Of a stretch of DNA of 64,000 nucleotides, positions 3,170-62,887 are shown piece after piece. The notes below the pieces were generated by a model. That model did no database searches, was not told the DNA's origin, and worked only from the letters and a program-made list of their open reading frames with translations. The stretch is taken from positions 73,547-137,546 of the forward strand of contig JAXLXI010000003.1 of assembly GCA_046328035.1 (NCBI GenBank), written 5' to 3'. The DNA comes from Candidatus Obscuribacterales bacterium. GTDB taxonomy: Bacteria > Cyanobacteriota > Vampirovibrionia > Obscuribacterales > Obscuribacteraceae. Within the stretch, counting starts at the first letter, position 1; each line of letters begins with the position of its first letter. Both the position numbers and the translations under genes were made by a program.

Positions 3170-3171
3170 CT

Positions 3172-6100: not shown

Positions 6101-6414
6101 GCAATCTCGTTGTCTTGTCCGCCTGCAACACCGGTCGCGGCAAAGACTACGAAGGGCAGGGAGTGATGGGACTGCGCGCCGCATTAATCGGTGCCGGAAC
6201 GCGAGGAGTCTTGATGTCACTCTGGTCTGTCGATGACAAGGCCACAAAAGAATTGATGAAGGCGTTCTATCAAAATCTGTGGAATCCCACGAAACCGATG
6301 AAACCAGTCGACGCATTGAAGGCGGCGCAAGAGTCGGTGAAGTCAACCCCCGGTGGCAAGTGGAAGCATCCCTACTACTGGGCGGGTTGGGTCTACGACG
6401 GCGTGGGCTGGTAG
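3172..6414 (+). CDS. TPR-repeat / CHAT-domain protein with a Sec signal peptide. It is a tandem paralog of the upstream gene.
   Basis: The ATG at 3172 (M47 of the ORF) opens MKKLLLLLAAALSCACQVDAQ. The domain order is the same as gene 1 and the C-terminal roughly 120 aa are near-identical to it. Confidence 0.85.
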   Translation: MKKLLLLLAAALSCACQVDAQESSKKLQDAEKSCRAQIEQLTKNKAPEAQLAKALHELAGILVEEGRPAEAEPLYNQYRDNDALIRKNIFIDIALEAQNSAARETHEKAFGIAPDLSKVMSDNGSKMDPNSVQYAQFLDDVAIAYPYFKNKTQPVIPIIVQAMQIRQKLEGNDSPSVAQEKFLIAHRLAALGGDYVPPALEGYAIWKKLSDAKDARLKTPAVQASLVRLAYLLSGDERTRQKGVELANLALANFSALAPNGDLSVSPVNGREKYGLGLLFENLGDYAKAEATFAASQIWYANHNQPQDNRVRTLIARARVCRLEGDYDVAWSRAREAEDLCKKLWGPTYYQDNMLGMNCLEVLTSVARSKGDLAAAENYARQLCGKSNLRLSNSQVASHQLELAQVLSLSNNAAEAASVAQKAVTILSSIIQPTYTDQSELAKAHLLLAGLALSKQDYKLADTEYNQALKLHLKDTSSAGVLGLVADYNGIAFANSKLGAQAVANKNVLAACEKLDEFVKSGFPKLSFAGQCAFIKCVGDQINALLSYGSATESADKRFEYVMRWQGLLINAVRQHSNLERSGDPNTVAALRNIRQELSKLSAGGAGQQSDLIGIQTRTEIKEMLERKLALKNTATGEIDPTLTKTAREFASSLSSDEVVVDMLRYKDMLTNKSAYFVFAVSKSGGVKGFRLGDADDIDKVSTDWLHAMASNSGTARDVSITDDDEKPNSPNAANAPRVDCTELANAVGKKLWLPIKAAIPASAPKVWICPDSKLATLPWSVLIDNNEGGRIRTCQIDSPRALLQLRAPYKAPQAKDLFVIGGIEFAQKALFLPGTESEANEIAALAEPMKLHVSKLTGLQPTKDEVLKHLSSSTYAHLATHGFFDPADDRDKTVPLVTLPGDTVRFSGKDQGGIDTRAAAASRNPLVLSGLLVAPIPDAQKLGGGQFKSNYLNIIAGSNNDRLTAEELVGQDLSHCNLVVLSACNTGRGKDYEGQGVMGLRAALIGAGTRGVLMSLWSVDDKATKELMKAFYQNLWNPTKPMKPVDALKAAQESVKSTPGGKWKHPYYWAGWVYDGVGW

Positions 6415-20598: not shown

Positions 20599-20987
20599 AC
20601 CTCCGACAGCCGCTTCTTCCCATAGCTGTTTTCACCGTGCTGATGTTATCGGCATGTTCAAGCACTAGAACCGCCGGTACTGCTCCGGTGGCGCCCGATG
20701 CTCACGCAAATGTGCCGGCAGACTACATGGAAGCACGTAATGTCCAGTTCCCCGTAGATCAAGGCGTCTTCCCGCAGGTGAAGGGCTACGATAAGTTTGC
20801 CGCCTCCTGCACTATTTGCCATTCGCTGCGTTATATCGAGATGCAGCCGAATTTCCCAAAGACTACATGGGCAAAGGTTGTGCATAAGATGGTCACCACT
20901 TACGGTGCACCTATATCCGATGCCGACGCCGCCGAAATCATTGATTATCTGGCTACTATTAAAGGAAAGCCGGAGGCGCCGAAATGA
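20595..20987 (+). CDS. Mono-heme cytochrome c, SorB-like electron-acceptor subunit
   Basis: The TTG start at 20595 overlaps the upstream stop and has GGAGG 9 nt upstream. It has a lipoprotein-like signal peptide. The single CxxCH motif is CTICH. Confidence 0.65.
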   Translation: MNLRQPLLPIAVFTVLMLSACSSTRTAGTAPVAPDAHANVPADYMEARNVQFPVDQGVFPQVKGYDKFAASCTICHSLRYIEMQPNFPKTTWAKVVHKMVTTYGAPISDADAAEIIDYLATIKGKPEAPK

Positions 20988-23620
20988 CTCATCAGGCAGA
21001 GGGCAATTTCGACTCGCCACCGATTGCTACCGGGCTGATACGCGCTCACGGCATAGCAGCATTTGTGATGCTGGCGCTGGTCGCCACATTCGGCGTTCTC
21101 GCCGCGATGAAATTGCATTCGCCTGATGTAGCCGCCAACAGCGCGGCAATGACCTGGGGACGCATCCGCTATAGCCACACGCAAGCGGTATTCTTTGGAT
21201 GGCTCGGCAACGCTTTCTTGATGTTTCTCTATCACGCAGTGCCCAGGCTGGCGCGCCGTCCGATCACAAGCCCTAAGCTGGGATGGTTCCTTTTCGCACT
21301 CTGGAATTGCGCCACTGTCGGCGGCTTAGTGCTGATGTTGATGGGACATAGCCAGGCTCTGGAATGGGCGGAGTTTCCTCTGGTCATCGATGGCGTAATC
21401 GTGCTTTCGTTTGCGCTCATGGTGGCACAATTTGTGGTACCGCTTTTGCGCTCGCGGTTGCACGAATTGTTTGTTTCCGGCTGGTACATACTGGGTGGCT
21501 TGATATTCACATTGCTCGCCTACCCGGTCGGCAATCTCGTGCCAGAGCTTCTTCCTGGCGCTCAGGGAGCTGCATTTAGTGGTCTGTGGATCCACGACGC
21601 GATCGGACTCTATGTGACACCGCTGGTGTTGTCGATTGCTTACTTTGTCATTCCTGCCGTCAGCAAACGCCCTATATTCAGCCACTTCTATTCGATGCTC
21701 GGTTTTTGGCTGTTGTTCTTCGTCTATCCGCTGAACGGCACGCACCACTATGTTTTCTCGGCACTGCCCATGGAGGCGCAGACGGGTGCCATCATCGCCT
21801 CGGTCATTCTTGGCATCGACGTAATTATCGTCGTGTCCAACCTGCTCCTCTCGATGCGCAAAGCCGAAATACGCGGCAGCCTCCCGCTCCTGTTTGTAAA
21901 AACCGGAACCATCGCTTATCTGATCGTCAGCCTGCAAGGCTCAATGCAAGCCTTGATGCCCGTCAACAAATTGCTGCACTTCTCAGATTGGGTTATTGGA
22001 CACTCGCACCTGGCCATGCTGGGATTCGCCACCTTCACCACCATCGGTGGCATGGCCTACGTGTGGCAAGCGACCCCGGAGATGAAGTTCAATTCGCGAG
22101 TTTTCAAATACTGCTATTGGCTGTTGCTGGTCGGCTTGCTCTGGATGGTTGTCGACCTCAGCATCGCCGGCGTGGTGCAGGCACAACTCTGGCAGGATGG
22201 ACTGCCGTGGCTTGAGTCTCTGCGCGCATCCAGGCAATACTGGGTGTGGCGCACATGGTCGGCAGTGCCTCTGATCGCCGGATTTGTTCTGCTATTCGTC
22301 TCGTTTTTCACGGGCAACAAAACTGCGGTTGACGAAGGTGCTGAACGAGCGAGCGACGCAATCTTCACCGCATCGGAAACACCTCCTCCGCACTCAACTC
22401 ATCCCTGGTTACGCATGGCGTATCTCAGCGCCTTCGCAGCCGGCTTTGGGTTGTTCGTGTTTTCTTTTGCCTTGCTCGGTATCGCTCCCGGTCTTGCGTT
22501 GGCGCAGCAAATCAAACTCACCAAGCCACCTGACATGGTGCCGCTGACTGCGCAGGAAGAACATGGAAGAAACATTTACGCCCGCGAGGGCTGTGGCTAC
22601 TGTCACACGCAACAGGTGCGTTTCGTCCTGGCGGACGCCAAACGATTTGGTGCCCCGACGCGCGCATGGGAAACCACCTTCGACTACCCGCAACTCTGGG
22701 GCACCAGACGGATAGGACCGGACCTGGCACGTGAAGGTTCGGTGCGCAGCGATGACTGGCAGCGAGTCCATCTATTCAATCCGCGGCTGGTGGTGGCACA
22801 ATCGAACATGCCCCGCTATCCCTGGTTGTTCGATGGCTCGGCCGCCTTGCCGAATAAAGATGGGCAAGCGTTGCTGGCGTATGTAAAAACCCTGGGACGC
22901 GCTCGCATGATGTCTGGTAATGCAAATGCCGGTCCCCTACCTGGATGCAACTGCCCGGATGAGGTGCGAGACCTCGAGAGTCCCGACGTTCCGCTCAATA
23001 CAAATGCCAACATGGCAATCAACAATGTCACATACGCGCCGCCGACCGGTACCGGCGCACCCGACGCTGGTCGAGGCGGCACTCTCTTCAAACAGAACTG
23101 CGCATCCTGCCACGGATACTCCGGCGAGGGAGATGGCGATGCCGCAGCACTGCTTTTGCCCAAGCCCGCCGATCTCGCCGCCAAAAACCTCTCGCACGAC
23201 CGCATCGGCAACGCCATACTCAATGGCGTGCCTGGAACCGCGATGCCAGCATGGCGCGATCTGCCACCAGGTCAAATCGAGGATTTGATCGCGTTTGTGC
23301 AGACTTTGTCGCCGGCGCGAAGCGCGTCACCGGATGGGCCGTTACCTAACGTCGCTATGAACATTTCAGGTGGTAGGCTGTTCGCCCAAAACTGCGTGTC
23401 GTGTCATGGAGTGAGAGGCGACGGCAATGGTCCGGCTGCTGCCACGCTGCCGCGCCGTCCTCCGAGTTTCCTCACTGATCGACCAACGCAAGAATACGCC
23501 GAGCAGGTCATTGCCAACGGTGTCCCGGGAACATCGATGCCACCCTGGACGTTGCGCCTCACACAACAAGAGCGTGCCGACCTGGCAACTTACGTCCGGT
23601 CGCTCTACGTCCCAAAATAG
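20984..23620 (+). CDS. ccoNOP: cbb3-type cytochrome c oxidase with CcoN, CcoO and CcoP fused in one polypeptide
   Basis: The CcoN motif NGTHHYVFSALP matches GPHHLHYTALP, and HSHLAMLGF is present. The CcoO-like CGYCH follows, then two further CxxCH motifs, CASCH and CVSCH, for CcoP. The start overlaps the upstream stop as ATGA. Confidence 0.8.
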   Translation: MTHQAEGNFDSPPIATGLIRAHGIAAFVMLALVATFGVLAAMKLHSPDVAANSAAMTWGRIRYSHTQAVFFGWLGNAFLMFLYHAVPRLARRPITSPKLGWFLFALWNCATVGGLVLMLMGHSQALEWAEFPLVIDGVIVLSFALMVAQFVVPLLRSRLHELFVSGWYILGGLIFTLLAYPVGNLVPELLPGAQGAAFSGLWIHDAIGLYVTPLVLSIAYFVIPAVSKRPIFSHFYSMLGFWLLFFVYPLNGTHHYVFSALPMEAQTGAIIASVILGIDVIIVVSNLLLSMRKAEIRGSLPLLFVKTGTIAYLIVSLQGSMQALMPVNKLLHFSDWVIGHSHLAMLGFATFTTIGGMAYVWQATPEMKFNSRVFKYCYWLLLVGLLWMVVDLSIAGVVQAQLWQDGLPWLESLRASRQYWVWRTWSAVPLIAGFVLLFVSFFTGNKTAVDEGAERASDAIFTASETPPPHSTHPWLRMAYLSAFAAGFGLFVFSFALLGIAPGLALAQQIKLTKPPDMVPLTAQEEHGRNIYAREGCGYCHTQQVRFVLADAKRFGAPTRAWETTFDYPQLWGTRRIGPDLAREGSVRSDDWQRVHLFNPRLVVAQSNMPRYPWLFDGSAALPNKDGQALLAYVKTLGRARMMSGNANAGPLPGCNCPDEVRDLESPDVPLNTNANMAINNVTYAPPTGTGAPDAGRGGTLFKQNCASCHGYSGEGDGDAAALLLPKPADLAAKNLSHDRIGNAILNGVPGTAMPAWRDLPPGQIEDLIAFVQTLSPARSASPDGPLPNVAMNISGGRLFAQNCVSCHGVRGDGNGPAAATLPRRPPSFLTDRPTQEYAEQVIANGVPGTSMPPWTLRLTQQERADLATYVRSLYVPK

Positions 23621-30947: not shown

Positions 30948-31493
30948 CATGCCGCCAGGTAAAGCGGATTTCATTATTAGTTTGTCGAAAGAATCGGCGA
31001 CTCGTATATGTTCAGTTACTATCGGCTGTTAACTGGGTCCGGCTTTCATAATGATCACAACTGGCGTTGTCGGTTTAGGGGGTGCTATGTCCCAGCAAAT
31101 TCGTTCACTTTGTCCGAGCGAAGACGAGTAAATCTCGCCACCTGATGTCGTCGGTGGCTCATTGCCACCACATTCGTCCTGAACAACTCTCCATCAACCC
31201 AATCAATTAAGACACCCTGAAGGGTGCCTGTCACTGCGTCCTGATGCGGAATAAATCAAAAGCACGGTAGCCTGCAGAGCTTCCGGGGCAACGCGATGCG
31301 TGCAGCTTACCGCTGCCTGCCGCCGTTGCGCGAAGTCGGCTGCGTCGCCAAGCTTGCGATGTTGCACGCATTGACACCTCATGCCTCATGCCATGCCGGA
31401 GCTCGCATGGCACGCGGTCGCACGGCAGTCACCACCACCTATTTACCGCTTTTACCTAGCGGCACCTTGTGCTGCAACCGGGAGGAATCAATC

Positions 31494-32594
31494 ATGACAG
31501 AAGTTATTACACAAGCACCGGCACCGCAACTGAACATCATGGATATGATCGCTAAAGATCTCGAAGAGCGCGCGGAACAGCCCCAACCATTGCACAATCA
31601 ATTCTCCGGCACTTCGGCGACCGAACAGAGAGATGCCTGGACAGCGATGACCGCCACCGCCGCCAGTACCACGGACAAAGTACCTGGGCTGACCCTGGTA
31701 AATGATCCGCAGCAAGGACAAGACAACTTGCACCCGGCAGAGATCGAAGTCGGTGGATACAACGCCGTGGTGGCAGCCAAAATCCCGGCACAGGGCGAAG
31801 GCGTGCTGACCTCGTTCGGACACGTATATAAGGATGCGTTGGAGCCCGGACTTCACGCAAAATGGCCGTGGCAACACGTCTATATGATGCCGACCAACTT
31901 GATTGCCAATACGGTGCGTGCGCAGGCTGGTTCGCACGACTTGCAACAAGTGACGACCCAGGTGACGGTGCCTTTCCACATGAATGCGGGACATGGACCG
32001 CAAGTCTTCCAGAGAATCGGCACTCTGGAAAAAGTGGAGGCCGTCGTCATCAATCCTGGAGTCCTGGAGTGCCTCAAGGCAGTATGCGCCCGCTACACGG
32101 CGGAAGAGCTGATCACTAAGCGGCAACATGTGAAAGAAGAAGTCGAGCAGGCTTTGAAAGACTACATCGCCACCGCACTCAAAGAACGCGGATTGGAAAA
32201 TGCACTTTCAATTGGCGTGATCGCCATCACCGACTTCAAATTCTCCGATGAATACAATAAGAGCATCGAACTGAAAGTGAAGGCAGCACAAGATGCATTG
32301 CGCGCCGAATCTGAGAAGAAACAGCGCATTACCGAAGCTGAGGGTTTGCGCGAAGCCATGAAGGCGAAAGCCGACGGCGAAGCCTATGCCACTGATGTGC
32401 GCAGCAAAGCAGAAGCCGATGCAATCCGTCGCCGTGCCGAAGCCCTGAAGGTCAACCCGGCGCTAATTGATCTGAACGCCATCGAAAAATGGGATGGCAA
32501 AGTGCCCGTCTACCAGGGTGGTGGCACTCCCATTCCGTTCATCAATGTGCCGAGACCTGGCGAAGTGCCACCACCTGCCGCTCCCACCAAATAA
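31494..32594 (+). CDS. SPFH/band-7 (stomatin/prohibitin/HflKC-like) domain protein
   Basis: GGGAGG lies upstream of the ATG. There is an SPFH core and a coiled-coil tail. Confidence 0.7.
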   Translation: MTEVITQAPAPQLNIMDMIAKDLEERAEQPQPLHNQFSGTSATEQRDAWTAMTATAASTTDKVPGLTLVNDPQQGQDNLHPAEIEVGGYNAVVAAKIPAQGEGVLTSFGHVYKDALEPGLHAKWPWQHVYMMPTNLIANTVRAQAGSHDLQQVTTQVTVPFHMNAGHGPQVFQRIGTLEKVEAVVINPGVLECLKAVCARYTAEELITKRQHVKEEVEQALKDYIATALKERGLENALSIGVIAITDFKFSDEYNKSIELKVKAAQDALRAESEKKQRITEAEGLREAMKAKADGEAYATDVRSKAEADAIRRRAEALKVNPALIDLNAIEKWDGKVPVYQGGGTPIPFINVPRPGEVPPPAAPTK

Positions 32595-32608
32595 GGGTTC
32601 GGTTGAAC

Positions 32609-33631
32609 ATGGAGAGTGGGCGTGCCTCCGGGCACGCCTTGCCTCCATGGCAGACGCAATACACACAAGATACCGCCATGTCCGACCAGACACGAATTCC
32701 ATTACTGAGCAAGGATGCACCGCTTTCGCCACCAGATGCGGCGGCACAAGTTCAAGATGCCGCCTTGCGCAAAATGTATGAAGATGTGAATCCGGCAGTC
32801 GTTCAGCTGAAGACAGATAAAGGCACGGGCTCCGGTTTCTTTATAAACGACCACGGTGAAATTCTCACCGCCGCGCATGTGGTGCTCAACGCCAGAGAAA
32901 CCTTCGCCGTCACCATGAACGGCAAGGCTTACCGCGCACGCATCGTCGATATCTCTGATACGACCGACCTGGCTCGTTTGCAACTTGAAGAATTCGACGG
33001 CAGCAAGCAACCTTATCTGAAGCTCGCCGACGATTCTAAAATGGCTCCCGATCAGCCTGTGTACTCAATCGGCTATCCGAAAGGATTGAGCACCGCGTAC
33101 CTTTCTCCAGGCGACTACAACGCGCACGTGACGATCTACGATCTCGTTGACAAAAACGCCATCGCCGCCAAATTCAAATCCGCCAACAGTCTGGAGAAAG
33201 ACAACTGGCTGAAAGCGCTGTCCGGCAAAGTCATCGAAGGCGATGTGCACGTCGAGCGCGGCAACTCCGGCGGACCGCTGCTCAACAGCGAGGGCAAAGT
33301 GATCGGCGTTGCCGATATCGCATCGCGCGATGGTGTCAGCATCTCGTATTACCGCCCGGTCGAAGACGTGCGTTCGTTTCTTAAACAGGAGCGCGAAAAA
33401 CCTTTTACCATTACATACACACACGTTCGCTCCGCACCGGGTACCTTCTGCATCGCTGGATTGCCACCGCTTCAAGGCGAGCCGGCGGCACCGCCAAAGG
33501 CGCCGCAAGACGTTTCTTGCCCGGCCCGAGATCGACTGGTGCTCGAAGAGATTCGTCGCAACGATGGACTTCTGGTTCCACCCTTTGACTGGAGTTCGGT
33601 AACCTTCAGACCATCAAAGTCGCCCAAATAG
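32609..33631 (+). CDS. Trypsin-like serine peptidase, S1 family
   Basis: GSGFFI is present. The catalytic motifs are TAAHVV (His) and GNSGGPL (Ser). The start is ambiguous between 32609 and 32678. Confidence 0.7.
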   Translation: MESGRASGHALPPWQTQYTQDTAMSDQTRIPLLSKDAPLSPPDAAAQVQDAALRKMYEDVNPAVVQLKTDKGTGSGFFINDHGEILTAAHVVLNARETFAVTMNGKAYRARIVDISDTTDLARLQLEEFDGSKQPYLKLADDSKMAPDQPVYSIGYPKGLSTAYLSPGDYNAHVTIYDLVDKNAIAAKFKSANSLEKDNWLKALSGKVIEGDVHVERGNSGGPLLNSEGKVIGVADIASRDGVSISYYRPVEDVRSFLKQEREKPFTITYTHVRSAPGTFCIAGLPPLQGEPAAPPKAPQDVSCPARDRLVLEEIRRNDGLLVPPFDWSSVTFRPSKSPK

Positions 33632-38414: not shown

Positions 38415-39665
38415 ATGCACCAGGATAAAAGAAGCTATCTGCTCGCGATCGTTACATTGGTGGCGATGGCGAATGTGGTGCCGAGTCCGCATGTGGTGCC
38501 GGGATGGAATGTGGTGCCGGCAGCACGCGCACAAAGCGCAGCATGGACGCAATATACAAACGCCGGCATGAACGCGTTGAGCAATGCCAATTATGCCGAT
38601 GCCACCAAACTGTTGACGGCGGCTATGAGCGAAGCGGAAAAATCCGGGCCGACCAGCGAGCCTTATCAGAAAAGCCTCAACAATCTGGCAGCGCTGGCGA
38701 CCGCGCAAGGACACTATGCCGACGCCGAAACGTTATACAAGCAAGTGTACAAAATCCAGCAGAAGGCGTATGGACAGCTTGATCCACGAGTAGCGCCGGT
38801 GCTCAATAATCTGGCGGGGCTCTACTTCAGGCAAGGCAAATACGAACAAGCGGAGCCTCTCTATGAGGGGGCTCTAACGGTCGATGAGCGAGCTTATGGA
38901 CCGAATCATCCAAATGTAGGAGCGGTGCTCAACAATCTGGCCGCGCTATATAAAGAAGAAGGTCGTTATGCCGATGCTGAGAAGTATTATTGGCGTGCCT
39001 TGAAAATTCATGAGCAGTGTTTTGGTATCAATCACATAACGGTTTCCACTGGGCTGAATAACCTCGGCGAACTGTTTCATCAACAGAGAAAATACGCGCA
39101 AGCGAAGACCTTCTATGAGAAGGCGCTTTCCATCAACGAGAAAGTTCTCGGTCCGGATCATCTAGAGGTTGCCACCGTACTCAACAACCTGGCTGAACTG
39201 AATCGTGACCAGAGGATGTTTGCGCAAGCAGAACCTCTTTATCAGCGCGCTCTCGCAATAAACGAGCGCAAGCTCGGTCCCGATCATCCGCGCGTTGCCA
39301 TCAATTTGCAGAACCTGGCTCTCATGTATCAAGCACAAGGCAAGCAATTGGGCGATGCCGAGCGTTTGTACAAACAGGCGTTAGCCATCGAAGAAAAGAC
39401 ACTCGGTGCCAACCATCCACACGTTGCCACCACTCTCGAAAATCTCGCCGACCTCTATTACGGTCAGGGAAATTATGCGGCCGCGGAACCGCTGTACAAG
39501 CAGGGACTGGAGATCGACGAAAGTCATGGTCCTAACCAACCGGGACTGATCGCCGATCTGGAAAGCTACGCAAAACTGTTGCGCAAAACTAATCGCCCGC
39601 AAGAGGCAGCAAAATTGGAAGCGCGTGCGCAGATGATCAGAGCTGCACAATCTCAAGCTAGATGA
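38415..39665 (+). CDS. Secreted TPR-repeat protein (TPR_10/12-type repeats)
   Basis: It has a signal peptide. The repeat A.L.NLA.LY..QG.Y..AEPLY..AL occurs about 8 times. Confidence 0.75.
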   Translation: MHQDKRSYLLAIVTLVAMANVVPSPHVVPGWNVVPAARAQSAAWTQYTNAGMNALSNANYADATKLLTAAMSEAEKSGPTSEPYQKSLNNLAALATAQGHYADAETLYKQVYKIQQKAYGQLDPRVAPVLNNLAGLYFRQGKYEQAEPLYEGALTVDERAYGPNHPNVGAVLNNLAALYKEEGRYADAEKYYWRALKIHEQCFGINHITVSTGLNNLGELFHQQRKYAQAKTFYEKALSINEKVLGPDHLEVATVLNNLAELNRDQRMFAQAEPLYQRALAINERKLGPDHPRVAINLQNLALMYQAQGKQLGDAERLYKQALAIEEKTLGANHPHVATTLENLADLYYGQGNYAAAEPLYKQGLEIDESHGPNQPGLIADLESYAKLLRKTNRPQEAAKLEARAQMIRAAQSQAR

Positions 39666-43152: not shown

Positions 43153-45654
43153 ATGGGCGATAAAATCACGCTGCTTCCCCCAGCCGATACATCTCCGCAC
43201 CCGGAGGTCTTGTCGGGATTCGACTTGATTCTAGACGCGCGGCGCGGAGTCGGTAAGGCAAAGACTGCCGAAACGGATCCGATGTTGGCTTTCGCAGAAG
43301 CAAGTTTTCTGATTGAAGAACTCAACGGCTATGCCGGAGTGCGTCGCGATCAGACCACCGAATTTAAAGATGGCGATAAGACTGTCAAATCCACAGTTGG
43401 CGAGCGCGTGGCTCGTTTGCCTGAGCAGATCAATCGCCAATTCAAGCGCGCAGAAGACATGGCCGACGGCGCCGACTTCATGAAGGCTGCGCAAGTCCTC
43501 AATCTTGTTCAGCAGGAATTGCTGCTGCGCCAGCAGCGTCTGGGACAAAACAGCCTGGCGTTGCGGCTTCCTACTCCCGGTGCAGCCGCCAAACTAGATC
43601 TGGAAGGCAGAATGCGTCCAGACGGCAAACTCGATCTGGAAAAATTCACGCCGCAAGAACTGCTTATTCTCAAAAGTCGTCTGGAACAAGTGATCACTGC
43701 GCCGCGAGCAATTCGCGAAATGCACGCGGCGTTTCTTGCTGAAACCGGCGACCTCACCGGTGCCCAGAAGGTCTTAACAGAATCGATGTTGTATGGCGGC
43801 GGCGGACCGGAAAGCGCGGATATTCGCGATGACGTCGCGCTCCGTTTGAAGCGTCAGGCGATCGCTGGCGGCGTCGACCCGCTCGAACTGGCGAGAATGG
43901 GCAGCCGTGCTTTGAGTTTTCACAACAGCGGCGAAGCGACAAGCTACTTCGATCGGGCCGCGGCTGTTGCCGATGGCTTGAACTACGAAGCGCTGCGCAC
44001 TCGCCTCAAGTCGGTAGACGACGAGTTGTCCGCCGGTAAAGCAACTCAAGAACGGCAAGCCGATTTGCAGTTGGAGAAACGGGCTACCGAAGAACTGCTG
44101 CATGCATCAGCGGCGGTGCGGTTCGGTCGCGTGAAACTGGCAGTCAGCCAGGGAAGCTTTGCAGAAGCCACTAACCTCGTCGAAAGCGCAGCGAAAATCG
44201 ATCCAGAATTTGTCAGCGAAAATCACGGCATGTATCTCAACACCTTGCTCTACACCAGAACTGAAGGCAAGGAGCAATCGGTATTCGAGTTCCACAATCA
44301 CCTTGTGCAGTTTCAGCGTCATTTGAGCCCCAAATCGTTCGATGCGGAAGCAGCCCAGCGCGAGCTGGCTCTGGCTCAGGAAGAAGTGAAGAAACTTCCT
44401 TCTGACGCCATCGAAAAGCTGCGCAAGTCCCAAGACGAGAAGGCTAAGAAACTAGAGGCTGACCTGGCGATCGCGACATCGGACGCCGACAAACAAAAAT
44501 TGGCGCGCGAGTTGGAAGAGGCGAAGGAAGGACTGAAAGGTCTGGAGCTGCTTGCGCATGCTCCTGCGTACACAAGACTGATGGAAGGCGTGTTCGCGCT
44601 CTGCAACAAGAAGCAAGGCGACGCGCTGGCAATCTTCGATGAAATCGAGAAGATTGACCCGGAGTACGCGAAAAGTGCAGCAACACAACTGGAAGAGCTG
44701 CGAAAGTTTGCCACCATGCCGCAGGCTATTGAGAAGGAAGAGTCGTTCATCAAGCATCTGCTGAAAGAGCTGGGATACACAGCAGCCGCCATCGCCGCCG
44801 GTGCTCTGGTAGTGGTGGCTACGGGTTGGAGCGGACCCGCTGCGTTAGCAGCCGGATTCGCCGCCGGATCAGCCACGCGCACCGGTCTCAAATATATGTG
44901 CGAAGGCGAAGTAAAATGGTACGACCCGCTAATTGGCGGCGTCGATGGTCTCAGCGGTGGTGCCGGCGTTCTAGTGCGCCGTGCCGCATTGAGTGGATTG
45001 AACGGCAGCGCCCGGGCACTGACTTCCGCAGAGCGCGCCATGCGCGCCGTCTCCGCCGACACTGCGCTACTGGAAGGCTTGCAAGGCGCCCAACGTTTCG
45101 AGACAGCACGCGAACTGGCATACACTGGATTGAAGGGAATGCGTTCAGGTCTCCCCTGGTATTCGAGATTGCCAATCGTCGGCAATCCCGCTTATCGCGA
45201 AGCAGTGGGCGCCGTCGCCAGCATGGGTCGAGTCGGCGCACGCAACGTCGTACTCGCCGACCTGGCAGCCGGTGCCACCACATCGGCCATCGCCCGCGGA
45301 CGCCAGTACGCACCCAAGGCATTCGACGGATCGTATTCATCAGGATTCGACCTGGCATCCGACTACGGAAAAGATGTCTTTGACGATTCGCTATTCTCAG
45401 CCGCCGGCGGAGCCGTCTTGCGTATCATGCCCGGTCAGTCTTACGTACCATGGGCAAAGGCAACCCCGTTCCTCAACGGGCAACGCCGCGTCTTAGATGA
45501 AGTACCGGTGACCATGCAAGCGTTGGAAAAGATAGATGAGCTTCTCAACGAGATAAATGCACCGAGCACACCCAAGCAAGTTCGCCAGTGGTATCTCCAG
45601 AGTCCCGGTCCAAAAGTCGAACTATACATTCCACCTCTGAGCGGCAAGAAGTAA
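43153..45654 (+). CDS. Large (833 aa) coiled-coil protein of unknown function with one predicted TM segment
   Basis: It has extended helical repeats. The hydrophobic stretch AAAIAAGALVVVATGW is present. Its stop codon abuts the calpain start. Confidence 0.6.
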   Translation: MGDKITLLPPADTSPHPEVLSGFDLILDARRGVGKAKTAETDPMLAFAEASFLIEELNGYAGVRRDQTTEFKDGDKTVKSTVGERVARLPEQINRQFKRAEDMADGADFMKAAQVLNLVQQELLLRQQRLGQNSLALRLPTPGAAAKLDLEGRMRPDGKLDLEKFTPQELLILKSRLEQVITAPRAIREMHAAFLAETGDLTGAQKVLTESMLYGGGGPESADIRDDVALRLKRQAIAGGVDPLELARMGSRALSFHNSGEATSYFDRAAAVADGLNYEALRTRLKSVDDELSAGKATQERQADLQLEKRATEELLHASAAVRFGRVKLAVSQGSFAEATNLVESAAKIDPEFVSENHGMYLNTLLYTRTEGKEQSVFEFHNHLVQFQRHLSPKSFDAEAAQRELALAQEEVKKLPSDAIEKLRKSQDEKAKKLEADLAIATSDADKQKLARELEEAKEGLKGLELLAHAPAYTRLMEGVFALCNKKQGDALAIFDEIEKIDPEYAKSAATQLEELRKFATMPQAIEKEESFIKHLLKELGYTAAAIAAGALVVVATGWSGPAALAAGFAAGSATRTGLKYMCEGEVKWYDPLIGGVDGLSGGAGVLVRRAALSGLNGSARALTSAERAMRAVSADTALLEGLQGAQRFETARELAYTGLKGMRSGLPWYSRLPIVGNPAYREAVGAVASMGRVGARNVVLADLAAGATTSAIARGRQYAPKAFDGSYSSGFDLASDYGKDVFDDSLFSAAGGAVLRIMPGQSYVPWAKATPFLNGQRRVLDEVPVTMQALEKIDELLNEINAPSTPKQVRQWYLQSPGPKVELYIPPLSGKK

Positions 45655-46764
45655 ATGGCAGATGTGATTATCGAAAACGAAGCACCGGCGCCGGTCATAC
45701 AAGCGCAACCACCTGCGGTGGCTGATATTGAGCCGTGGTTCAAGGCTCACCGCGAAGAGCTTGACACCAATCACAATGGCAGGGTTGAAGTTGCGGAGTT
45801 GTTCGAAACCGTCTCCAACAAAAAATTCACCAGCCACGATGCGGGTATGGTAATCGGCATGCTCTACGGATTCGAACTGATTGACGGACAAGACAAGAAA
45901 GACAGCGGCATCTCAGAAAAAGATGTGCAAGCGATGAGCAAAAAACTGAAAGACGATCCGAATGGCGACCTCGCGGAAAAGCTAAAACTGGCCATGCTGA
46001 TCGCCGGCTCGCGCACCGACAACATCAATCAAAAACTGTGGGGCGAGTTCAAGAAGCCTGTCGACGCAATCAAGTCGGATGCCGTAGGACAGGGCTCGGT
46101 CGGCGACTGCTGGTTTCTTGGCTCGGTAGCAGCGGTAGCAGACACCATGCCTGAAACCATTGCGCGCATGATCAGGGAAGAACCCGATGGCAAGTTCACC
46201 GTGACATTCCCTGGCGCACCGAAATATCCAGTCACAGTCGATGCACCAACCGCGATGGAGATGGCGCTCTTCGCGCGCTCCGATAAACACGGATCATGGG
46301 TGGCAGTTCTGGAGAAGGCGGCAGCTCAGTTGTTCAACCGTAATTCGCCGTATCCCGCCAAGCACGACATCGCGGCATTGCACGGCGGCGACTGCGGCGT
46401 GGCACTGAGCTTGTTGACCGGCGAGCAGTATGCGCGGCTCGATCCAACAGACCGCAACTTCAGGCAAAAACTGGAAGTGACGGCGCAGTGGGGATTGCCT
46501 ATGTGCGCCGGTTCCAAGCCTATCAACACCGACAAGGACATGGATGAGCGCGGTGTGTTTTTCACGCACCTGTACACAGCCAAGTACGACCCGCGTGACC
46601 GGCAAGTGAGCGTGCGCAACCCGTGGGGCTGGTCTCCCGGCGGCAACAGTGAACCGGTCACTCCCGACGGACAACCGAGAGACGGAGTCCCGGATGGCGC
46701 TTTCAAGCTGTCTGTCGCCGATTTTCAAAAAAGCTTTCCGTCCGTCTGGGTCGTCGTGCCCTGA
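45655..46764 (+). CDS. Calpain-like cysteine peptidase (C2 family) with an N-terminal EF-hand
   Basis: QGSVGDCWFLGSVAAV aligns with the calpain QGALGDCWLLAA and carries the Cys. LEKAAAQ, THLYTA (His) and VRNPWG (Asn) are also present. The EF-hand loop is DTNHNGRVEVAE. Confidence 0.8.
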   Translation: MADVIIENEAPAPVIQAQPPAVADIEPWFKAHREELDTNHNGRVEVAELFETVSNKKFTSHDAGMVIGMLYGFELIDGQDKKDSGISEKDVQAMSKKLKDDPNGDLAEKLKLAMLIAGSRTDNINQKLWGEFKKPVDAIKSDAVGQGSVGDCWFLGSVAAVADTMPETIARMIREEPDGKFTVTFPGAPKYPVTVDAPTAMEMALFARSDKHGSWVAVLEKAAAQLFNRNSPYPAKHDIAALHGGDCGVALSLLTGEQYARLDPTDRNFRQKLEVTAQWGLPMCAGSKPINTDKDMDERGVFFTHLYTAKYDPRDRQVSVRNPWGWSPGGNSEPVTPDGQPRDGVPDGAFKLSVADFQKSFPSVWVVVP

Positions 46765-46892: not shown

Positions 46893-48470
46893 TTAGTTTT
46901 CTGCAAACCCGAACCAGAGTTTCCTCCTTTCTTCATTACTCATTGGCGGCAACACAGGTACGTTGCCCTCGTTTCTCACAAACGCCCTCACGAATTGCAC
47001 AAAGCGATAAGCGACCGGAAGTTTTTCCTCGCAGCCTGGAGCCGTTTTCCAGATGGCGGGGTCGTCATTGCCGATGCACAAATACGCCTGCCCGCCGTCG
47101 GCAAGGTCGGCAATAGTCACCCAGATGGTGCGGTCCCAGATGGTGCTCTCGTCGACAACCGGTTCGTGCTCGAAGACGAGTTCCGCCAGTGGTCTGATTC
47201 GGGCACCAACACCACTGACCGTATCAGAGAACACAATACCATTGCAGTCCCGGTAGAACGCGGTCAAGCTGTTGGCGTCAACGCCATAAAGAGCACGCAG
47301 ATGCAACAAATCGAGCAACGGCAACTTCTCCTCTGCGCCCAAAGGCGGCTCAATCGTCCAAGTCTGCGGAATGTCGTAGTTGAAATAGGCCGCAATCGCC
47401 GCCTGCCGCACTGCCCATCCAAGCTTCGGGCGCAGCGCCAGTGTTTCTTCATCTTGATCGACGCCCACAAAGCCGCCGACGATTTCCATACTGAATGAGC
47501 GAGTCGGCTCAGTCGTTTTGTCGATTAACAGAAATGGGACCAGCGCCGTACCCATTGGAAGCAATGAGGAAAACACTTCGGCATCCTCAGAGCGAGGATC
47601 AGACGACGGCAGCAGCAGTGGATTTACATCATCGAATTTCTCAGAGCGCCCTTTCAGGTATGGAATCAACTTGGCTATCCAGCCATTGATTCGCGCTACT
47701 CCGTAATCGGTCTGTTGCTTGTAGATGCTCTGCCAATGATTGAGATCGATGTCGCCGCGCGAAGCTCTGTAAAACTGCTCCAGAATCGGCCGCACGTGTA
47801 CAAGCCAGAAGTCCAGACCGAAGTCGGTGAGTACATCCAGCTTGCGACACAACTTCAGCCAGTCTTCACTGGTCCCCTCCAGGGTAATGGAGGGAATTCC
47901 GCATCCGGCTAAAATTACGTAATCGAAAAATGGCTCATAGATATCGAGAAGCGTGATTTGACTTACTGTGCGTTCGACTGGCCCTGTGGTGCTGAAATCG
48001 CACATCAAGTTATCGAAGATATCGCCAATCTCATTGCGCAAAGCAAATGCCAGCATCTCAATCGCTTCGTGCCAGGCACTTTCTGGAGATTCGAGAAAGA
48101 GGTCATCCATCGCGATGCCGATCTCCACTTTTCCTTCGGCGTGTTTGACCAGCTTGTGACGCAGTGCTTCCGAATTGTTGCGCACGTGCTGCGAAAAACC
48201 TTGCAGTATCGTCACCCAGATCATGTCAGGCGAAATGACCAGGGGACGGTGATCGGCGAATGCCAGGTGCACTGCGGCGATCAGCGGATGAAACTCGACG
48301 TCGCTCACGACTTTGGAATTGTAGTCGGACCACGAGTTGAGTCGCACACCGCCGGGCAACAATGTGCTCAGCCCGTATCCCAGGTCGCGACAATTGAGCG
48401 CAGCTGTCGCTGGCTCCACATCATCGACACTGAATGTGATACCACCCGCGGACTTCGTAATATTGACCAT
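46893..48470 (-). CDS. Hypothetical protein (possibly DUF4419-like)
   Basis: The ATG at 48470 has a GAGGA RBS. No domain was firmly recognised. Confidence 0.45.
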   Translation of the reverse strand: MVNITKSAGGITFSVDDVEPATAALNCRDLGYGLSTLLPGGVRLNSWSDYNSKVVSDVEFHPLIAAVHLAFADHRPLVISPDMIWVTILQGFSQHVRNNSEALRHKLVKHAEGKVEIGIAMDDLFLESPESAWHEAIEMLAFALRNEIGDIFDNLMCDFSTTGPVERTVSQITLLDIYEPFFDYVILAGCGIPSITLEGTSEDWLKLCRKLDVLTDFGLDFWLVHVRPILEQFYRASRGDIDLNHWQSIYKQQTDYGVARINGWIAKLIPYLKGRSEKFDDVNPLLLPSSDPRSEDAEVFSSLLPMGTALVPFLLIDKTTEPTRSFSMEIVGGFVGVDQDEETLALRPKLGWAVRQAAIAAYFNYDIPQTWTIEPPLGAEEKLPLLDLLHLRALYGVDANSLTAFYRDCNGIVFSDTVSGVGARIRPLAELVFEHEPVVDESTIWDRTIWVTIADLADGGQAYLCIGNDDPAIWKTAPGCEEKLPVAYRFVQFVRAFVRNEGNVPVLPPMSNEERRKLWFGFAEN

Positions 48471-48869
48471 GTAATGATCCTCATAGAGACAACACGAATC
48501 GCCGCGCGTCGATGCGAGAGCATCGCTACGCGACAGGACTTGTTTTCCTATCCTCATGATAACTGTTTTTCGATAAATTTTGCCTGGGAAAAACCTGGTA
48601 TTTAGACTGATTTACGCGCCCTGAAAGCCTCTGCCTGTGGCGCTTCTCTGTCAGCGCTGGTGAGGGATTCGCGCACCACCTGCACCACCGTCTGTGATAC
48701 CGCTACCAGACCCGCCGTCCGGCATTCTGTGGTTCGCCAGATCGCCCCGGAAGTCAAGTGGACACTCGAAATCGACAGCCTGTCGCTTTTAATGTAGTTC
48801 TTCGACTGAGTGGGTAGTAAGAGTGTGCGGAGAACCAGCAACAAGGTCCTGAAACACCGAGGTAATTAC

Positions 48870-55682: not shown

Positions 55683-57206
55683 TCAGTGGCTGCTTCTCAA
55701 ATTCTGCAAATCCTGCCCGAACTGCTTCGGCTTGGCAGCCGGTTTGGCTGCTGGTTTCGCTGGTTTTGGGACAGGCGCGGGTGCAACTGTAGCATGCCTG
55801 ACAGGCTTGGCAACTTTCTTCGCAGGCGGAATCCGAGGTTTGACGGCACTAGTTGACTTAGACTGAACCGGCGTCGGTTTTGCATCGTCCGGTTCGGGAG
55901 AACTGCTTGCCGGTTCAGCAGCCGGCGTTTTAGTTGGCGTCGAACTTGGCGTCGTACCCGGTGTGGTAGCTGGAGTCGGTGCCGGCGTGACAGCCGGCTG
56001 TGTCGGTGCACTGGTGTTGGTCAGCTTCGGCAGCAGGAAGAAACCCAGACCGCCCAAAAGCACGACCGCGACCACAACGCCAATCAAAACACCCATACCC
56101 AGCGATGACTTTTGTGGAGCCTGTCCGTCGCTGATGGTGGCATATCTGGCGCGATTGAATTCGCCGCCGCGTGCAGCGGGAGGCGATGGGGCTGCGGCCG
56201 AATTTGATGATGTCGCCCGACTGGCGGCAGCAGCGGCGGCCCGCAAAGCGACATCGCCGGATGTCTTCGACACCGGTCCGGCGCAGGCGCCAACCAGCGC
56301 ATCTTGCAATTCGCGAATCGTTTGATAGCGCTTGCTGGGATCCTTTTCCATCGCCTTAAAGATCACTGCCTCCACTACTGGTGGCACCGATACATCGGGA
56401 TTCTTGTCTTTCATCGAAGGTGGAATGCTGGACGTGTGACACTGCAGCATCTCGAAGACACTGCTCACATAATTGAACGGATCCATGCCGGTGAGCATCT
56501 CATACATGACGACGCCCAGTGAGTAGACGTCGGAGCGAATATCGCCCGGTTTGCCGAGACACTGCTCGGGACTCATGTATGGCGGACTACCGAGGATTTC
56601 GCCGGACTGCGTCAACTTACGATTTTCTTCCTCGACTTTTGCCAGCCCGAAGTCGACGACTTTGACGAAATCGGTTTGGTCATCGAGCAACACGATGTTT
56701 CCCGGTTTCATGTCGCGGTGTACAACGCCGTTAGCGTGCGCATGGTCGAGCGCACTGAGAACTTGCAGAGTGATGTTGAGAAAACGATCCATACTGAATG
56801 GGCCGTCCTGCGCGATCAAAAAGTCCAGGCTGCGCCCGCGCAAATAATCCATCACCACGAATGGTGCACCGTCGTCGCCGAACAGGCAGTCGTAGACTGT
56901 GACGACATGTGGATGGTTCATGGCGCAAAGTGTATTCACCTCGCGTTGAAAACGGTCGCGCGCGGTGGAGTTTCTTCCCAGCTGCATGCGAATGGTTTTG
57001 ATGGCGACATAGCGATTGACGTTGATCTGTTTGGCTTTATAAACCACACTCATGCCACCAGATCCGAGCACCGATTCGATTTCAAATCGGCCGTCCAGTG
57101 TCATGCCGACGAGAGGATCGGGGAGTTCATCACTCCTCGTTCCACCGCCTTGACTCAAGTAAAGATCGCCGTTCAACGCCGGTACCTGCGCACGCCCACC
57201 AGTCAT
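55683..57206 (-). CDS. Ser/Thr protein kinase with a Pro/Ala/Thr-rich linker and a TM anchor
   Basis: The glycine loop is GSGGMSVVYKA. HRDMKPGN and DFG are present. Confidence 0.85.
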   Translation of the reverse strand: MTGGRAQVPALNGDLYLSQGGGTRSDELPDPLVGMTLDGRFEIESVLGSGGMSVVYKAKQINVNRYVAIKTIRMQLGRNSTARDRFQREVNTLCAMNHPHVVTVYDCLFGDDGAPFVVMDYLRGRSLDFLIAQDGPFSMDRFLNITLQVLSALDHAHANGVVHRDMKPGNIVLLDDQTDFVKVVDFGLAKVEEENRKLTQSGEILGSPPYMSPEQCLGKPGDIRSDVYSLGVVMYEMLTGMDPFNYVSSVFEMLQCHTSSIPPSMKDKNPDVSVPPVVEAVIFKAMEKDPSKRYQTIRELQDALVGACAGPVSKTSGDVALRAAAAAASRATSSNSAAAPSPPAARGGEFNRARYATISDGQAPQKSSLGMGVLIGVVVAVVLLGGLGFFLLPKLTNTSAPTQPAVTPAPTPATTPGTTPSSTPTKTPAAEPASSSPEPDDAKPTPVQSKSTSAVKPRIPPAKKVAKPVRHATVAPAPVPKPAKPAAKPAAKPKQFGQDLQNLRSSH

Positions 57207-60823: not shown

Positions 60824-62887
60824 TTAATTCCCGCGCGCCGTCGCTGCACGCTTCAGCGCTTCCTGACGCGCAAAACCCATCGCGGCAACGCTTACTTTCT
60901 GATTGTCGGGCTTGTTCGCTTTCGCCCAGCATGCTTTCGCTTCGCCGGCTGCACGCTCACCTTCCGCGATCTGATCGCAATTAAACAGATTGACCGCCTG
61001 GTTGCCCAGCGATTCTGCAAGTTGTGCGTACCAGCCCTGAGTAAAATTGCTCATCGAGCGGGTGCGCGATAGTTTGACCGCCTCTGCGAAATATGGTCCG
61101 GCAGCCTGAGGACTGGCAGCCTTCTCAAGCACCCGCCCGTAGGTCTGATAGCCCTGGGTCAGTTCATCGTCCGACTTCAGATTGGCTTTCGTTGCGCCCT
61201 GAGCAATCTTCATGTATTCATCCATAATTTTCTTCGCGTCGGCAAAGCGATGTTGCGAAACCAACGAGTCTGCCCACAGCCTTCTCATTTCCAACTTGGG
61301 TCCGAACCATTTCGTCATCTGGTCCGCTACCTGCACGGCCTGACGCCAGGAATCATTGCTCTCTTCAAACTGTCCGCTGTTTCGGTAAGCCTCTCCAAGC
61401 CTTTTGTACGCACTAGCCAGATCTGTCTGCTGGCGTTCGTAAGGACCGACTGTTTTATAAGCCCGCTCGTAGGCCGCTAGACCTTTTTTGGCGTACACAA
61501 TCGCCTGTCCGTAGTTTTTTTTCTCTGCTTCGAAATCACTGCGCTCAGTCCAGTGCCAGCCTACTCCGGCAGTATCCGTATTTCTGAGAAGCTTCTCCGC
61601 TTCAGCGTAATACCTGTCACCCATCGCATTATCGCGACGTGTCCTGTAAGCGAGGGCTAGAAACATTTTGACTTCGAACTGGTGCTGCGGAGTAAGCTTC
61701 GAATTCCTCTCGACTTTGACCAGTTCATCGGCTCTCTGCAGACACCTGATCACCTGATCGTTATCACGCTGTACCTGAGCGCGCATGCCTTCCAAATAGC
61801 ATTCTTCGGCCGTAGAAGGCAGACTGGGCGTCACATGAGCCGTGGACTCTCCGGAGGACATCGCATCATTGGACATCATCATAGTAAAGGGCACACCCAA
61901 CACAATCGCCATCATCAGTACAACCATGCCAACAACGATCACCGCCCACTTGGACAGTCGTCGCATGCGTCCGTGATAGATTGCCCGTTCAACCGGCAAG
62001 TGCCCGCTGAGCATGGTGCGAAATTCGTGTATCGACTGCGGTCTGTCGTTGCGATTTTTCCTGAGTGCCGTAAAAATCGCTTGCTCGATATGTGGCGACA
62101 ACTTCACGTCAGGTCGCACCTGGCTGAAAGGTCGCGGCATGTCGTGCACCTGATGGTACATGATATCGAGGGCAGTCTCACCGGTGACCGCCGGCACACC
62201 TGTGAGCGTTTCGTACATGACGCAAGCCAGTGAATAAATGTCGCTGCGAAAATCAGCGCTGCGCCCGGCACACTGCTCCGGACTCATGTAGGCGGGGGTG
62301 CCAAAAAAGCTTGATGTTGCACGGCTTACATCCTGGGCACCACCGGCGGAGTCGATGAGCAGTTTGGAAATTCCAAAATCAACCACCTTCACGCGCATCT
62401 CGCCATCTTCTTCGCGAGTGATCATGAGATTGCTGGGCTTTATGTCGCGATGCACGATGCTGCGCGAATGAGCATGCTCGAGCGCGTCCATTACCTGCGC
62501 GAAGACATGCATGAATGTCCGTTCGTCGAAAGTTCCATCCTCCTGCACCACTTTCTGGATCGTGCGTCCTCCAATCAGATCGGCGACCAGATAGGGATAA
62601 CCATCGTCGGAGACTTGCAAGCGCAGGACTCGCAATATGTTTGGATGGTCGAGAGTCGAAATCAGTTGGGCTTCTCGCTTCAGCCGTTGCAGGGCAGCGC
62701 CGTCATCGACATGCGTGTGCATGACTTTAACCGCCACCGATTGATTGAGTGGCACATAAAGAGCTTTGTAAACAACGCTCATTCCGCCGCGGCCGAGCAC
62801 CGAGACAATCTCATAGCAGCCGGCGAACAAAGTTCCCACCAGCGCATCTTCTGGTCGTCCGTCGAGTCTGTCTTCGTCAACGCTCAC
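60824..62887 (-). CDS. Ser/Thr protein kinase with a TM segment and a C-terminal TPR region
   Basis: The glycine loop is GRGGMSVVYKA. HRDIKPSN and DFG are present. Confidence 0.85.
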   Translation of the reverse strand: MSVDEDRLDGRPEDALVGTLFAGCYEIVSVLGRGGMSVVYKALYVPLNQSVAVKVMHTHVDDGAALQRLKREAQLISTLDHPNILRVLRLQVSDDGYPYLVADLIGGRTIQKVVQEDGTFDERTFMHVFAQVMDALEHAHSRSIVHRDIKPSNLMITREEDGEMRVKVVDFGISKLLIDSAGGAQDVSRATSSFFGTPAYMSPEQCAGRSADFRSDIYSLACVMYETLTGVPAVTGETALDIMYHQVHDMPRPFSQVRPDVKLSPHIEQAIFTALRKNRNDRPQSIHEFRTMLSGHLPVERAIYHGRMRRLSKWAVIVVGMVVLMMAIVLGVPFTMMMSNDAMSSGESTAHVTPSLPSTAEECYLEGMRAQVQRDNDQVIRCLQRADELVKVERNSKLTPQHQFEVKMFLALAYRTRRDNAMGDRYYAEAEKLLRNTDTAGVGWHWTERSDFEAEKKNYGQAIVYAKKGLAAYERAYKTVGPYERQQTDLASAYKRLGEAYRNSGQFEESNDSWRQAVQVADQMTKWFGPKLEMRRLWADSLVSQHRFADAKKIMDEYMKIAQGATKANLKSDDELTQGYQTYGRVLEKAASPQAAGPYFAEAVKLSRTRSMSNFTQGWYAQLAESLGNQAVNLFNCDQIAEGERAAGEAKACWAKANKPDNQKVSVAAMGFARQEALKRAATARGN

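Follow-up and report, generated by a model that had tools for sequence, protein, structure and literature searches.

In eukaryotes, calpains are the textbook example of proteases activated by Ca2+, and the locus considered here raises the question of whether a bacterial calpain could also be placed under the control of Ca2+, and on what such an enzyme would act. In the stretch of DNA that was analysed (the window, 64,000 nucleotides of contig JAXLXI010000003.1 from a Candidatus Obscuribacterales bacterium), a plus-strand gene encodes a protein in which a calpain-type protease core follows a pair of EF-hands, and the gene abutting it upstream encodes a large orphan protein. The reading that we prefer, and hold to be somewhat more probable than improbable, is that the protein would be a cytoplasmic, Ca2+-switched calpain that gates limited proteolysis on or at a membrane-anchored partner, as the sequences and structure models together suggest.

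Its sequence and modelled fold place the protein in the calpain family (MEROPS C2). The calpain motifs quoted in a preliminary description of this DNA are all found in the open reading frame (ORF) at 45655-46764 of the plus strand, in the order claimed, with Gln146 and Cys152 lying within QGSVGDCWFLGSVAAV (QGSVGDCWFLG), LEKA at residues 219-222 (VLEKA at 218-222), His305 within THLYTA, and Asn322 within VRNPWG. The Peptidase_C2 identity proposed there is borne out by Pfam PF00648, which matches residues 136-327 with 57.3 bits (E=1.7e-15) where the gathering cutoff is 23.8, and whether aligned pairwise, by profile or in a multiple alignment, the catalytic Cys, His and Asn fall on the calpain triad. 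The gene and the features of its protease core are as follows.

45655-46764, plus strand: EF-hand calpain gene, 369 amino acids, ATG start, TGA stop.
46057-46761, plus strand: compact CysPc core, residues 135-369 (PF00648, hhalign, Foldseek).
46090-46110, plus strand: Gln146 of the oxyanion hole to catalytic Cys152, in QGSVGDC; invariant in 18 sequences and equivalent to calpain Gln99 and Cys105.
46567-46569, plus strand: catalytic His305; invariant, and equivalent to calpain-2 His262 and the GHAYS motif of calpain-9.
46618-46626, plus strand: catalytic Asn322 with Pro323 and Trp324 (NPW); invariant, and equivalent to calpain-2 Asn286-Pro-Trp.

An alignment with 18 relatives that are 26-94% identical to the window protein shows Q146, C152, H305, N322, P323, W324 and G325 to be invariant, and Q146, C152, H305, N322 and W324 align with Q99, C105, H262, N286 and W288 of calpain-2, and also with calpain-9. 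The closest sequence matches in the PDB are the protease cores of calpain-9, -8, -5, -3 and -1, and the Cys, His and Asn motifs coincide in these alignments. Comparison by hhalign with core residues 90-344 of rat calpain-2, the sequence used being identical to PDB 1df0_A residues 1-346 save the C105S mutation of the crystal, gave a probability of 98.9% (E=3.4e-17) and an alignment reaching the C-terminus of the window protein. The AlphaFold2 model of the full-length protein has a pLDDT (predicted local distance difference test) of 86.6 and a pTM (predicted template-modelling score) of 0.85, and when it was searched against the PDB with Foldseek, the best 40 matches were all calpains, mostly isolated protease cores, with a top E of ~1e-11. 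The two-subdomain CysPc (PC1/PC2) fold is supported by this model, with target-normalised template-modelling (TM) scores of 0.53-0.60 for protease-core entries. Family membership and the catalytic residues are established by these comparisons, and the protein is predicted to be a cysteine endopeptidase with an intact Gln/Cys/His/Asn/Trp catalytic set. It has no transmembrane or signal-like segment, and there is no calpain paralogue elsewhere within the 64-kb window. An identical protein is encoded on a Logan contig (L001), and a 99% identical calpain is found in the Ca. Obscuribacteraceae metagenome-assembled genome (MAG) JBGASG010000001.1 (locus L002), on a 1.07-Mb contig that matches the window.

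The second element of the protein is its N-terminal EF-hand module. The preliminary description had claimed a perfect 12-residue EF-hand loop at the N-terminus, and such a loop exists and is real at the level of the family, but it belongs to a pair of EF-hands, only the first of which (EF1) is canonical.

45712-45954, plus strand: N-terminal two-EF-hand lobe, residues ~20-100.
45763-45798, plus strand: EF1, canonical 12-residue loop DTNHNGRVEVAE, residues 37-48 (D37, N39, N41, G42, V44, E48; PS00018).
45883-45924, plus strand: EF2, non-canonical loop DGQDKKDSGISEKD (D77...D90), with Lys81 at canonical ligand position 3.
45967-46017, plus strand: linker helix from the EF lobe to the protease core, residues 105-121 (full-length model).

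The segment DTNHNGRVEVAEL fits PROSITE PS00018 at residue 37, a pattern that appeared in 58 of 20,000 shuffles of the calpain protein (0.3%), and EF1 is the sole match to it in 32,101 residues of long stop-free segments from the window. Ligand positions 1, 3, 5, 6, 8 and 12 of EF1 are kept in 11/11 sequences of the orthologue group and in most of the distant relatives. A profile built from 31 N-terminal domains matches 649 PDB sequences at E<=1, and the best 60 of these 649 are all EF-hand proteins (top E=3e-15, calmodulins at ~1e-12); taken individually, 26 of the 31 domains match Pfam EF-hand models (E<0.01). Four relatives (P0011, P0014, P0044 and P0045) carry an EF-hand and Peptidase_C2, both above the Pfam cutoffs, in one chain. 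Both structure models show two helix-loop-helix units with single bridge residues at 44 and 86, which is the paired EF-hand fold, and the top 50 Foldseek matches of the isolated N-terminal domain are all EF-hand proteins. The EF-hand fold and the EF1 loop are established in this way. For EF2, D77 and D90 are nearly invariant in the 18-sequence alignment; the second hand is probably degenerate in the window's orthologue group, and probably inactive, since Lys81 occupies a ligand position there. Distant relatives (for example L009, L012, L017, L039 and P0016) have a conserved, non-canonical second loop, SNDE[WL]GDENDGIT[LR]xDL, with an apparent two-residue insertion relative to the 12-residue EF loop. 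It occurs in 63 of 161 representatives, and the motif at the EF2 position of these relatives can also be written SNDExGDENDGITxxD.

Classical calpains bind Ca2+ within the protease core too, and for calpain-2 the ligands of the two core sites are I89, G91, D96 and E175 (site 1) and E292, D299, Q319 and E323 (site 2) (Rawlings 2015, PMC4631099). Such sites typify Ca2+-dependent calpains, and membership of the family does not require them. In the window protein, site 2 is partly kept, with E292, D299 and D321 of calpain-2 corresponding to E333, D338 and D347 by hhalign; the counterpart of calpain-2 D321 is a ligand in calpain-1. These residues belong to a conserved acidic loop, whose pattern SEPxxPDGxPxDGxxDGxF is kept in 16 of 18 family members.

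46651-46701, plus strand: conserved acidic loop EPVTPDGQPRDGVPDGA, residues 333-349, counterpart of core Ca2+ site 2 (hhalign).

On what would such an enzyme act? A candidate is the product of the gene immediately upstream, a conserved, abutting neighbour that the preliminary description had overlooked.

43153-45654, plus strand: partner gene, an ORF for an 833-amino-acid orphan protein, whose stop adjoins the calpain ATG.
44758-44856, plus strand: hydrophobic Gly/Ala-rich segment LLKELGYTAAAIAAGALVVVATGWSGPAALAAG of the partner, residues 536-568, almost completely invariant.

The junction reads AAG TAA ATG, the partner's stop codon being followed at once by the calpain start. Homologues of the partner with 41-47% identity lie directly upstream of a calpain orthologue, with gaps of 0-11 nt, at L003, L004, L005, L082 and L083/L084, and the pair recurs in six orthologous contexts (L002-L005, L082 and L083/L084). 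The outer flanks differ between these loci, with AsmA and BipA at L082, a 2OG-Fe(II) oxygenase at L083 and DUF4419 in the window, and adjacency kept amid such differing surroundings marks the pair as a conserved two-gene module within the window's orthologue group. More distant calpain paralogues are without the 833-residue partner. Residues 540-558 of the partner score as transmembrane-like on the Kyte-Doolittle scale, as do the equivalent residues in its orthologues, and columns 545-568 are invariant in four of four aligned orthologues whose overall identity is only 42-46%; this segment is a probable membrane hairpin or anchor. The conserved protein starts lend support to the annotated start codons, in that the partner proteins begin with an invariant MGD in 4/4 aligned (window 43153-43161), and the calpain orthologues begin M-[A/P/S/G]-D (calpain start 45655-45663) although the ~15 residues that follow are unconserved and disordered.

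The partner had no match in Pfam (E<=1), NCBIfam, PADLOC or, with a profile of four orthologues, the PDB, and homologue searches with the full-length protein and with its C-terminal 304 residues returned only near-identical or fragment proteins among the matches listed. Scanning against NCBIfam gave nothing useful for the calpain, the partner or the DUF4419 protein, and no promoter or terminator signal around the pair exceeded shuffle expectation. A known anti-phage system was considered and rejected, there being no PADLOC match for the pair or its neighbours. The DUF4419 protein itself (46893-48557, minus strand, 554 amino acids, E=6.5e-65) is encoded convergently with the calpain, and was rejected as part of the module on the ground that, apart from the window, only the near-identical MAG locus L002 has its gene beside the calpain.

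The calpain of the window belongs to a large family, and the preliminary remark that calpains are rare in bacteria stands for cultured genomes but not for the EF-hand calpains, which form ~1,300 clusters at 50% identity. An exhaustive profile search over 1.84 billion cluster representatives (50% identity; threshold E<=1e-30) returned 1,319 proteins; the best 150 of these all have E<1e-84, and 148 of the 150 align from the EF module through the end of the core. Relatives are encoded on 424 stretches of a one-genome-per-species collection. The taxonomic tally, made on the best 80 of these 424 loci and hence biased toward close relatives of the query, comprises ~39 loci from Obscuribacterales, 6 from other Melainabacteria and 16 from Sericytochromatia or Blackallbacteria, with a few from Archangium, Xenobia, Vulcanimicrobiota and others. 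Several genomes supply 2-5 of these 80 loci each, and paralogues can stand in tandem (three in L043 and two each in L057, L010 and L068). Within a set of 161 family members, QGxxGxC is kept in 141 and RNPW in 147, a strict PS00018 loop lies upstream of the catalytic Cys in 117, with up to 8 loops per protein, and a transmembrane or signal-like segment is present in just one. The family is predicted to be soluble, cytoplasmic and mostly catalytically competent, because 160 of the 161 members are free of such segments and because the Cys and Asn motifs are so widely kept. One of the three tandem paralogues at L043 (1526-8812, Melainabacteria MAG JADYYD010000135.1), of 1086 amino acids, has eight canonical EF loops, and the 1184-amino-acid representative P0044 combines eight EF loops with a LysM domain and a calpain core; P0138 is grouped with L043 and P0044.

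Ca2+-regulated proteolysis by the window calpain, which the preliminary description had read from this architecture, is a reasonable inference, and the following scheme is one way in which it might operate. The protein would be a soluble cytoplasmic calpain, whose CysPc core is joined by one linker helix to an N-terminal, calmodulin-like two-EF-hand lobe; the cytoplasmic location is favoured by the absence of transmembrane or signal segments in the window protein and in 160 of 161 family members. While cytoplasmic Ca2+ is at its resting level, the core would be held inactive or off its substrate by the EF lobe. A rise in Ca2+ would load the EF1 loop, and possibly also the acidic loop at residues 333-349, upon which the loaded lobe would change conformation and permit limited proteolysis by the core. 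The calpain would be co-transcribed, and probably translationally coupled, with the 833-residue partner, which is most likely a membrane anchor, a scaffold or a substrate of the calpain. The pair would thus constitute a membrane-proximal, Ca2+-triggered proteolytic switch. In this scheme we infer Ca2+ binding, the Ca2+ dependence of activity, the cytoplasmic location and the role of the partner; the family membership, the catalytic residues, the EF-hand fold and loop, the conservation of the gene pair and the taxonomic distribution are established.

A number of observations weigh against a Ca2+ switch acting on the partner. In the core, the side-chain ligands of site 1 are gone, with D96 of calpain-2 corresponding to A143 and E175 to G213/S214, as is the last ligand of site 2, where E323 corresponds to A349 (both by hhalign). 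In the lobe, Lys81 on a ligand position of EF2 leaves at most one canonical Ca2+ site, and the window protein scores 15.4 bits with Pfam EF-hand_7 against a cutoff of 30; because this score is sub-threshold, the EF-hand assignment rests on the PROSITE loop, the family-level profiles and the predicted fold. None of the Foldseek matches of the N-terminal domain is individually significant (best E 0.07). The partner is without a recognisable domain, so its role is conjectural, and clustering of gene neighbourhoods at 80 loci found no single neighbour family common to the wider calpain family; only generic signalling genes recur near the calpain paralogues at these loci.

The main alternative is that of an active calpain-type protease in which the EF lobe is not a Ca2+ switch but a constitutive structural domain, or one that docks the partner or a substrate, whether or not a metal is permanently bound to it, with activity being controlled by other means such as expression, partner binding or autoprocessing. 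The degeneracy of EF2 in the window's orthologue group, the EF-hand score under the Pfam cutoff, and a core that has lost Ca2+ site 1 and kept site 2 incompletely would all fit such a protein, and 27 of the 161 family members are without any strict EF loop yet keep the core. Many EF-hand-fold domains are protein-binding modules. However, all ligand positions of EF1 are kept in 11 orthologues that are only 44-94% identical, and their conservation across these and most of the distant relatives is hard to explain without metal binding. Relatives have also multiplied the EF module, one protein having as many as 8 canonical loops, and this suggests that responsiveness to Ca2+ has been selected for. 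We regard a structural or docking lobe as unlikely, if still the alternative to be taken most seriously.

A second alternative is that the calpain is an exported effector or toxin directed against prey or competitors, with the EF-hand silencing it in a low-Ca2+ producer and activating it in a high-Ca2+ exterior or target, and with the partner acting as translocator or as immunity protein or chaperone. Some Melainabacteria, such as Vampirovibrio, are predatory (PMC4451040), and an invariant membrane hairpin in the partner, a two-gene cassette amid varying flanks, the LysM domain of the relative P0044, and a weak Foldseek match of the full model to papain-fold CdiA-CT toxins (E 1.5e-3, TM 0.25) would fit such a role. 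Against it, 160 of the 161 members have neither a signal peptide nor a transmembrane segment, no secretion-system genes adjoin the pair in the window, and there are no PADLOC matches; furthermore, the occurrence of many paralogues per genome beside kinases and response regulators resembles intracellular signalling. An effector is the less likely because signals for export are missing from the family and genes for secretion or defence from the vicinity, and we consider it improbable. That the protein is a non-catalytic pseudoenzyme (29 of 267 calpain homologues were counted as non-peptidases; Rawlings 2015, PMC4631099), or a eukaryotic contaminant or very recent transfer, calpains being typically eukaryotic, is effectively excluded by the invariance of every catalytic residue, the 1.07-Mb Obscuribacteraceae contig on which the gene sits, the uniform G+C content of the window (53-58%), the operon-style packing against a bacterial orphan gene, the hundreds of relatives in the same bacterial lineages, and an N-terminal EF lobe unlike that of any classical eukaryotic calpain.

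Elsewhere in the window there are other genes that may be recorded. Two tandem genes (65-3169 and 3034-6414, both plus strand) encode proteins of 1034 and 1126 amino acids with TPR repeats and a C-terminal CHAT (caspase-like) protease (E ~1e-50 each), and a 705-amino-acid protein (10047-12164, minus strand) carries a caspase domain of the Peptidase_C14 type (E=2.9e-30) together with DUF4384 at its C-terminus; with the calpain, these make the window rich in 'eukaryote-like' cysteine proteases. An ORF of 878 amino acids (20984-23620, plus strand), with COX1-like, FixO and two cytochrome-c (cbb3 subunit III-like) domains, is an apparent fusion of cbb3-type oxidase subunits. An SPFH/Band-7 protein (432 amino acids) is followed by an overlapping ORF for a trypsin-like serine protease (380 amino acids) at 31296-33631 of the plus strand. 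Two Ser/Thr protein kinases and an NPHP3-type TPR protein are encoded at 55683-57206 (minus strand), 60824-62887 (minus strand) and 38415-39665 (plus strand); at other loci, kinases, response regulators and histidine kinases recur near calpain paralogues, without fixed adjacency.

How does the window calpain, read as a Ca2+-switched enzyme at a membrane partner, compare with known systems? With the classical calpains (the CAPN1/CAPN2 large subunits; MEROPS C02.001/002) it shares the papain-like CysPc core with its Gln/Cys/His/Asn/Trp residues and the same fold, the QGxxGDCW, LEKA and RNPWG motifs, the presence of EF-hand modules fused into the same polypeptide, a predicted cytoplasmic location, and part of the acidic loop of core Ca2+ site 2. 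It nevertheless stands outside the classical calpains, since a calpain-III domain and a C-terminal penta-EF-hand are both missing and its EF-hands are an N-terminal pair joined to the core by a helix. The last residue of the window protein, 369, is also the end of its core, and the calpain-III/CBSW domain (there is no Calpain_III Pfam match), the small subunit and the anchor helix of classical calpains are lacking; the core is ~235 residues as against ~320, with 17-24% identity in PDB fold alignments, and core Ca2+ site 1 is absent. The likeness in combining EF-hands with CysPc is best read as an independent, convergent fusion, and the acquisition of EF-hands has been placed late within eukaryotes (Rawlings 2015, PMC4631099).

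If activity of the window protein does depend on Ca2+, it would offer a compact, 369-residue, single-chain and probably soluble model of how EF-hands gate a calpain core, direct evidence for Ca2+-triggered limited proteolysis in bacterial signalling, and a clear example of architectural convergence. With the conserved partner gene, a candidate substrate or anchor is already at hand, and the hypothesis can be tested at once. A mechanistic analogue, and an analogue only, is found in the calcium-dependent protein kinases of plants and apicomplexans, enzymes with a fused, calmodulin-like regulatory lobe of four EF-hands; these differ in being kinases rather than proteases, in having the opposite domain order, and in sharing no homology beyond the EF-hand lobe.

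The bacterial calpains described previously, such as Tpr of P. gingivalis and the PPC-domain calpains of cyanobacteria, resemble the window protein in being bacterial, monomeric, non-classical members of Peptidase_C2 without calpain-III. Published bacterial calpains are described as having no EF-hand, as mostly Ca2+-independent and often secreted or membrane-associated, and as occurring singly in each bacterium (PMC4631099), and a 2022 survey of cyanobacteria concluded that bacterial calpains have only CysPc in common with other calpains (Veselenyiova 2022, PMC9380684). That survey leaves out the non-photosynthetic lineages (PMC9380684), and full-text literature searches turned up no paper on the EF-hand calpain family. 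In contrast to the published bacterial calpains, members of this family carry EF-hands at the N-terminus and almost never have a signal peptide; one genome often encodes several of them, at times in tandem arrays, and parts of core site 2 are kept without site 1. A family of ~1,300 clusters thus contradicts the surveys of 2015 and 2022 on three points, namely the absence of EF-hands, the general lack of Ca2+ dependence, for which the contradiction would follow from the predicted switch, and the single homologue per bacterium. It is striking how far the family is concentrated in lineages that are sister to the photosynthetic cyanobacteria. We would tentatively suggest, as a proposition that falls somewhat short of even likelihood, that non-photosynthetic cyanobacterial lineages (Obscuribacterales, other Melainabacteria and Sericytochromatia) independently invented a paralogue-rich, Ca2+-switched calpain signalling in which N-terminal EF sensors gate the core, and which in the window's orthologue group became hard-wired to a membrane-hairpin partner. 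Were this so, the EF-hand calpains would give prokaryotes an equivalent of eukaryotic calpain signalling, reached through the convergent fusion of domains.

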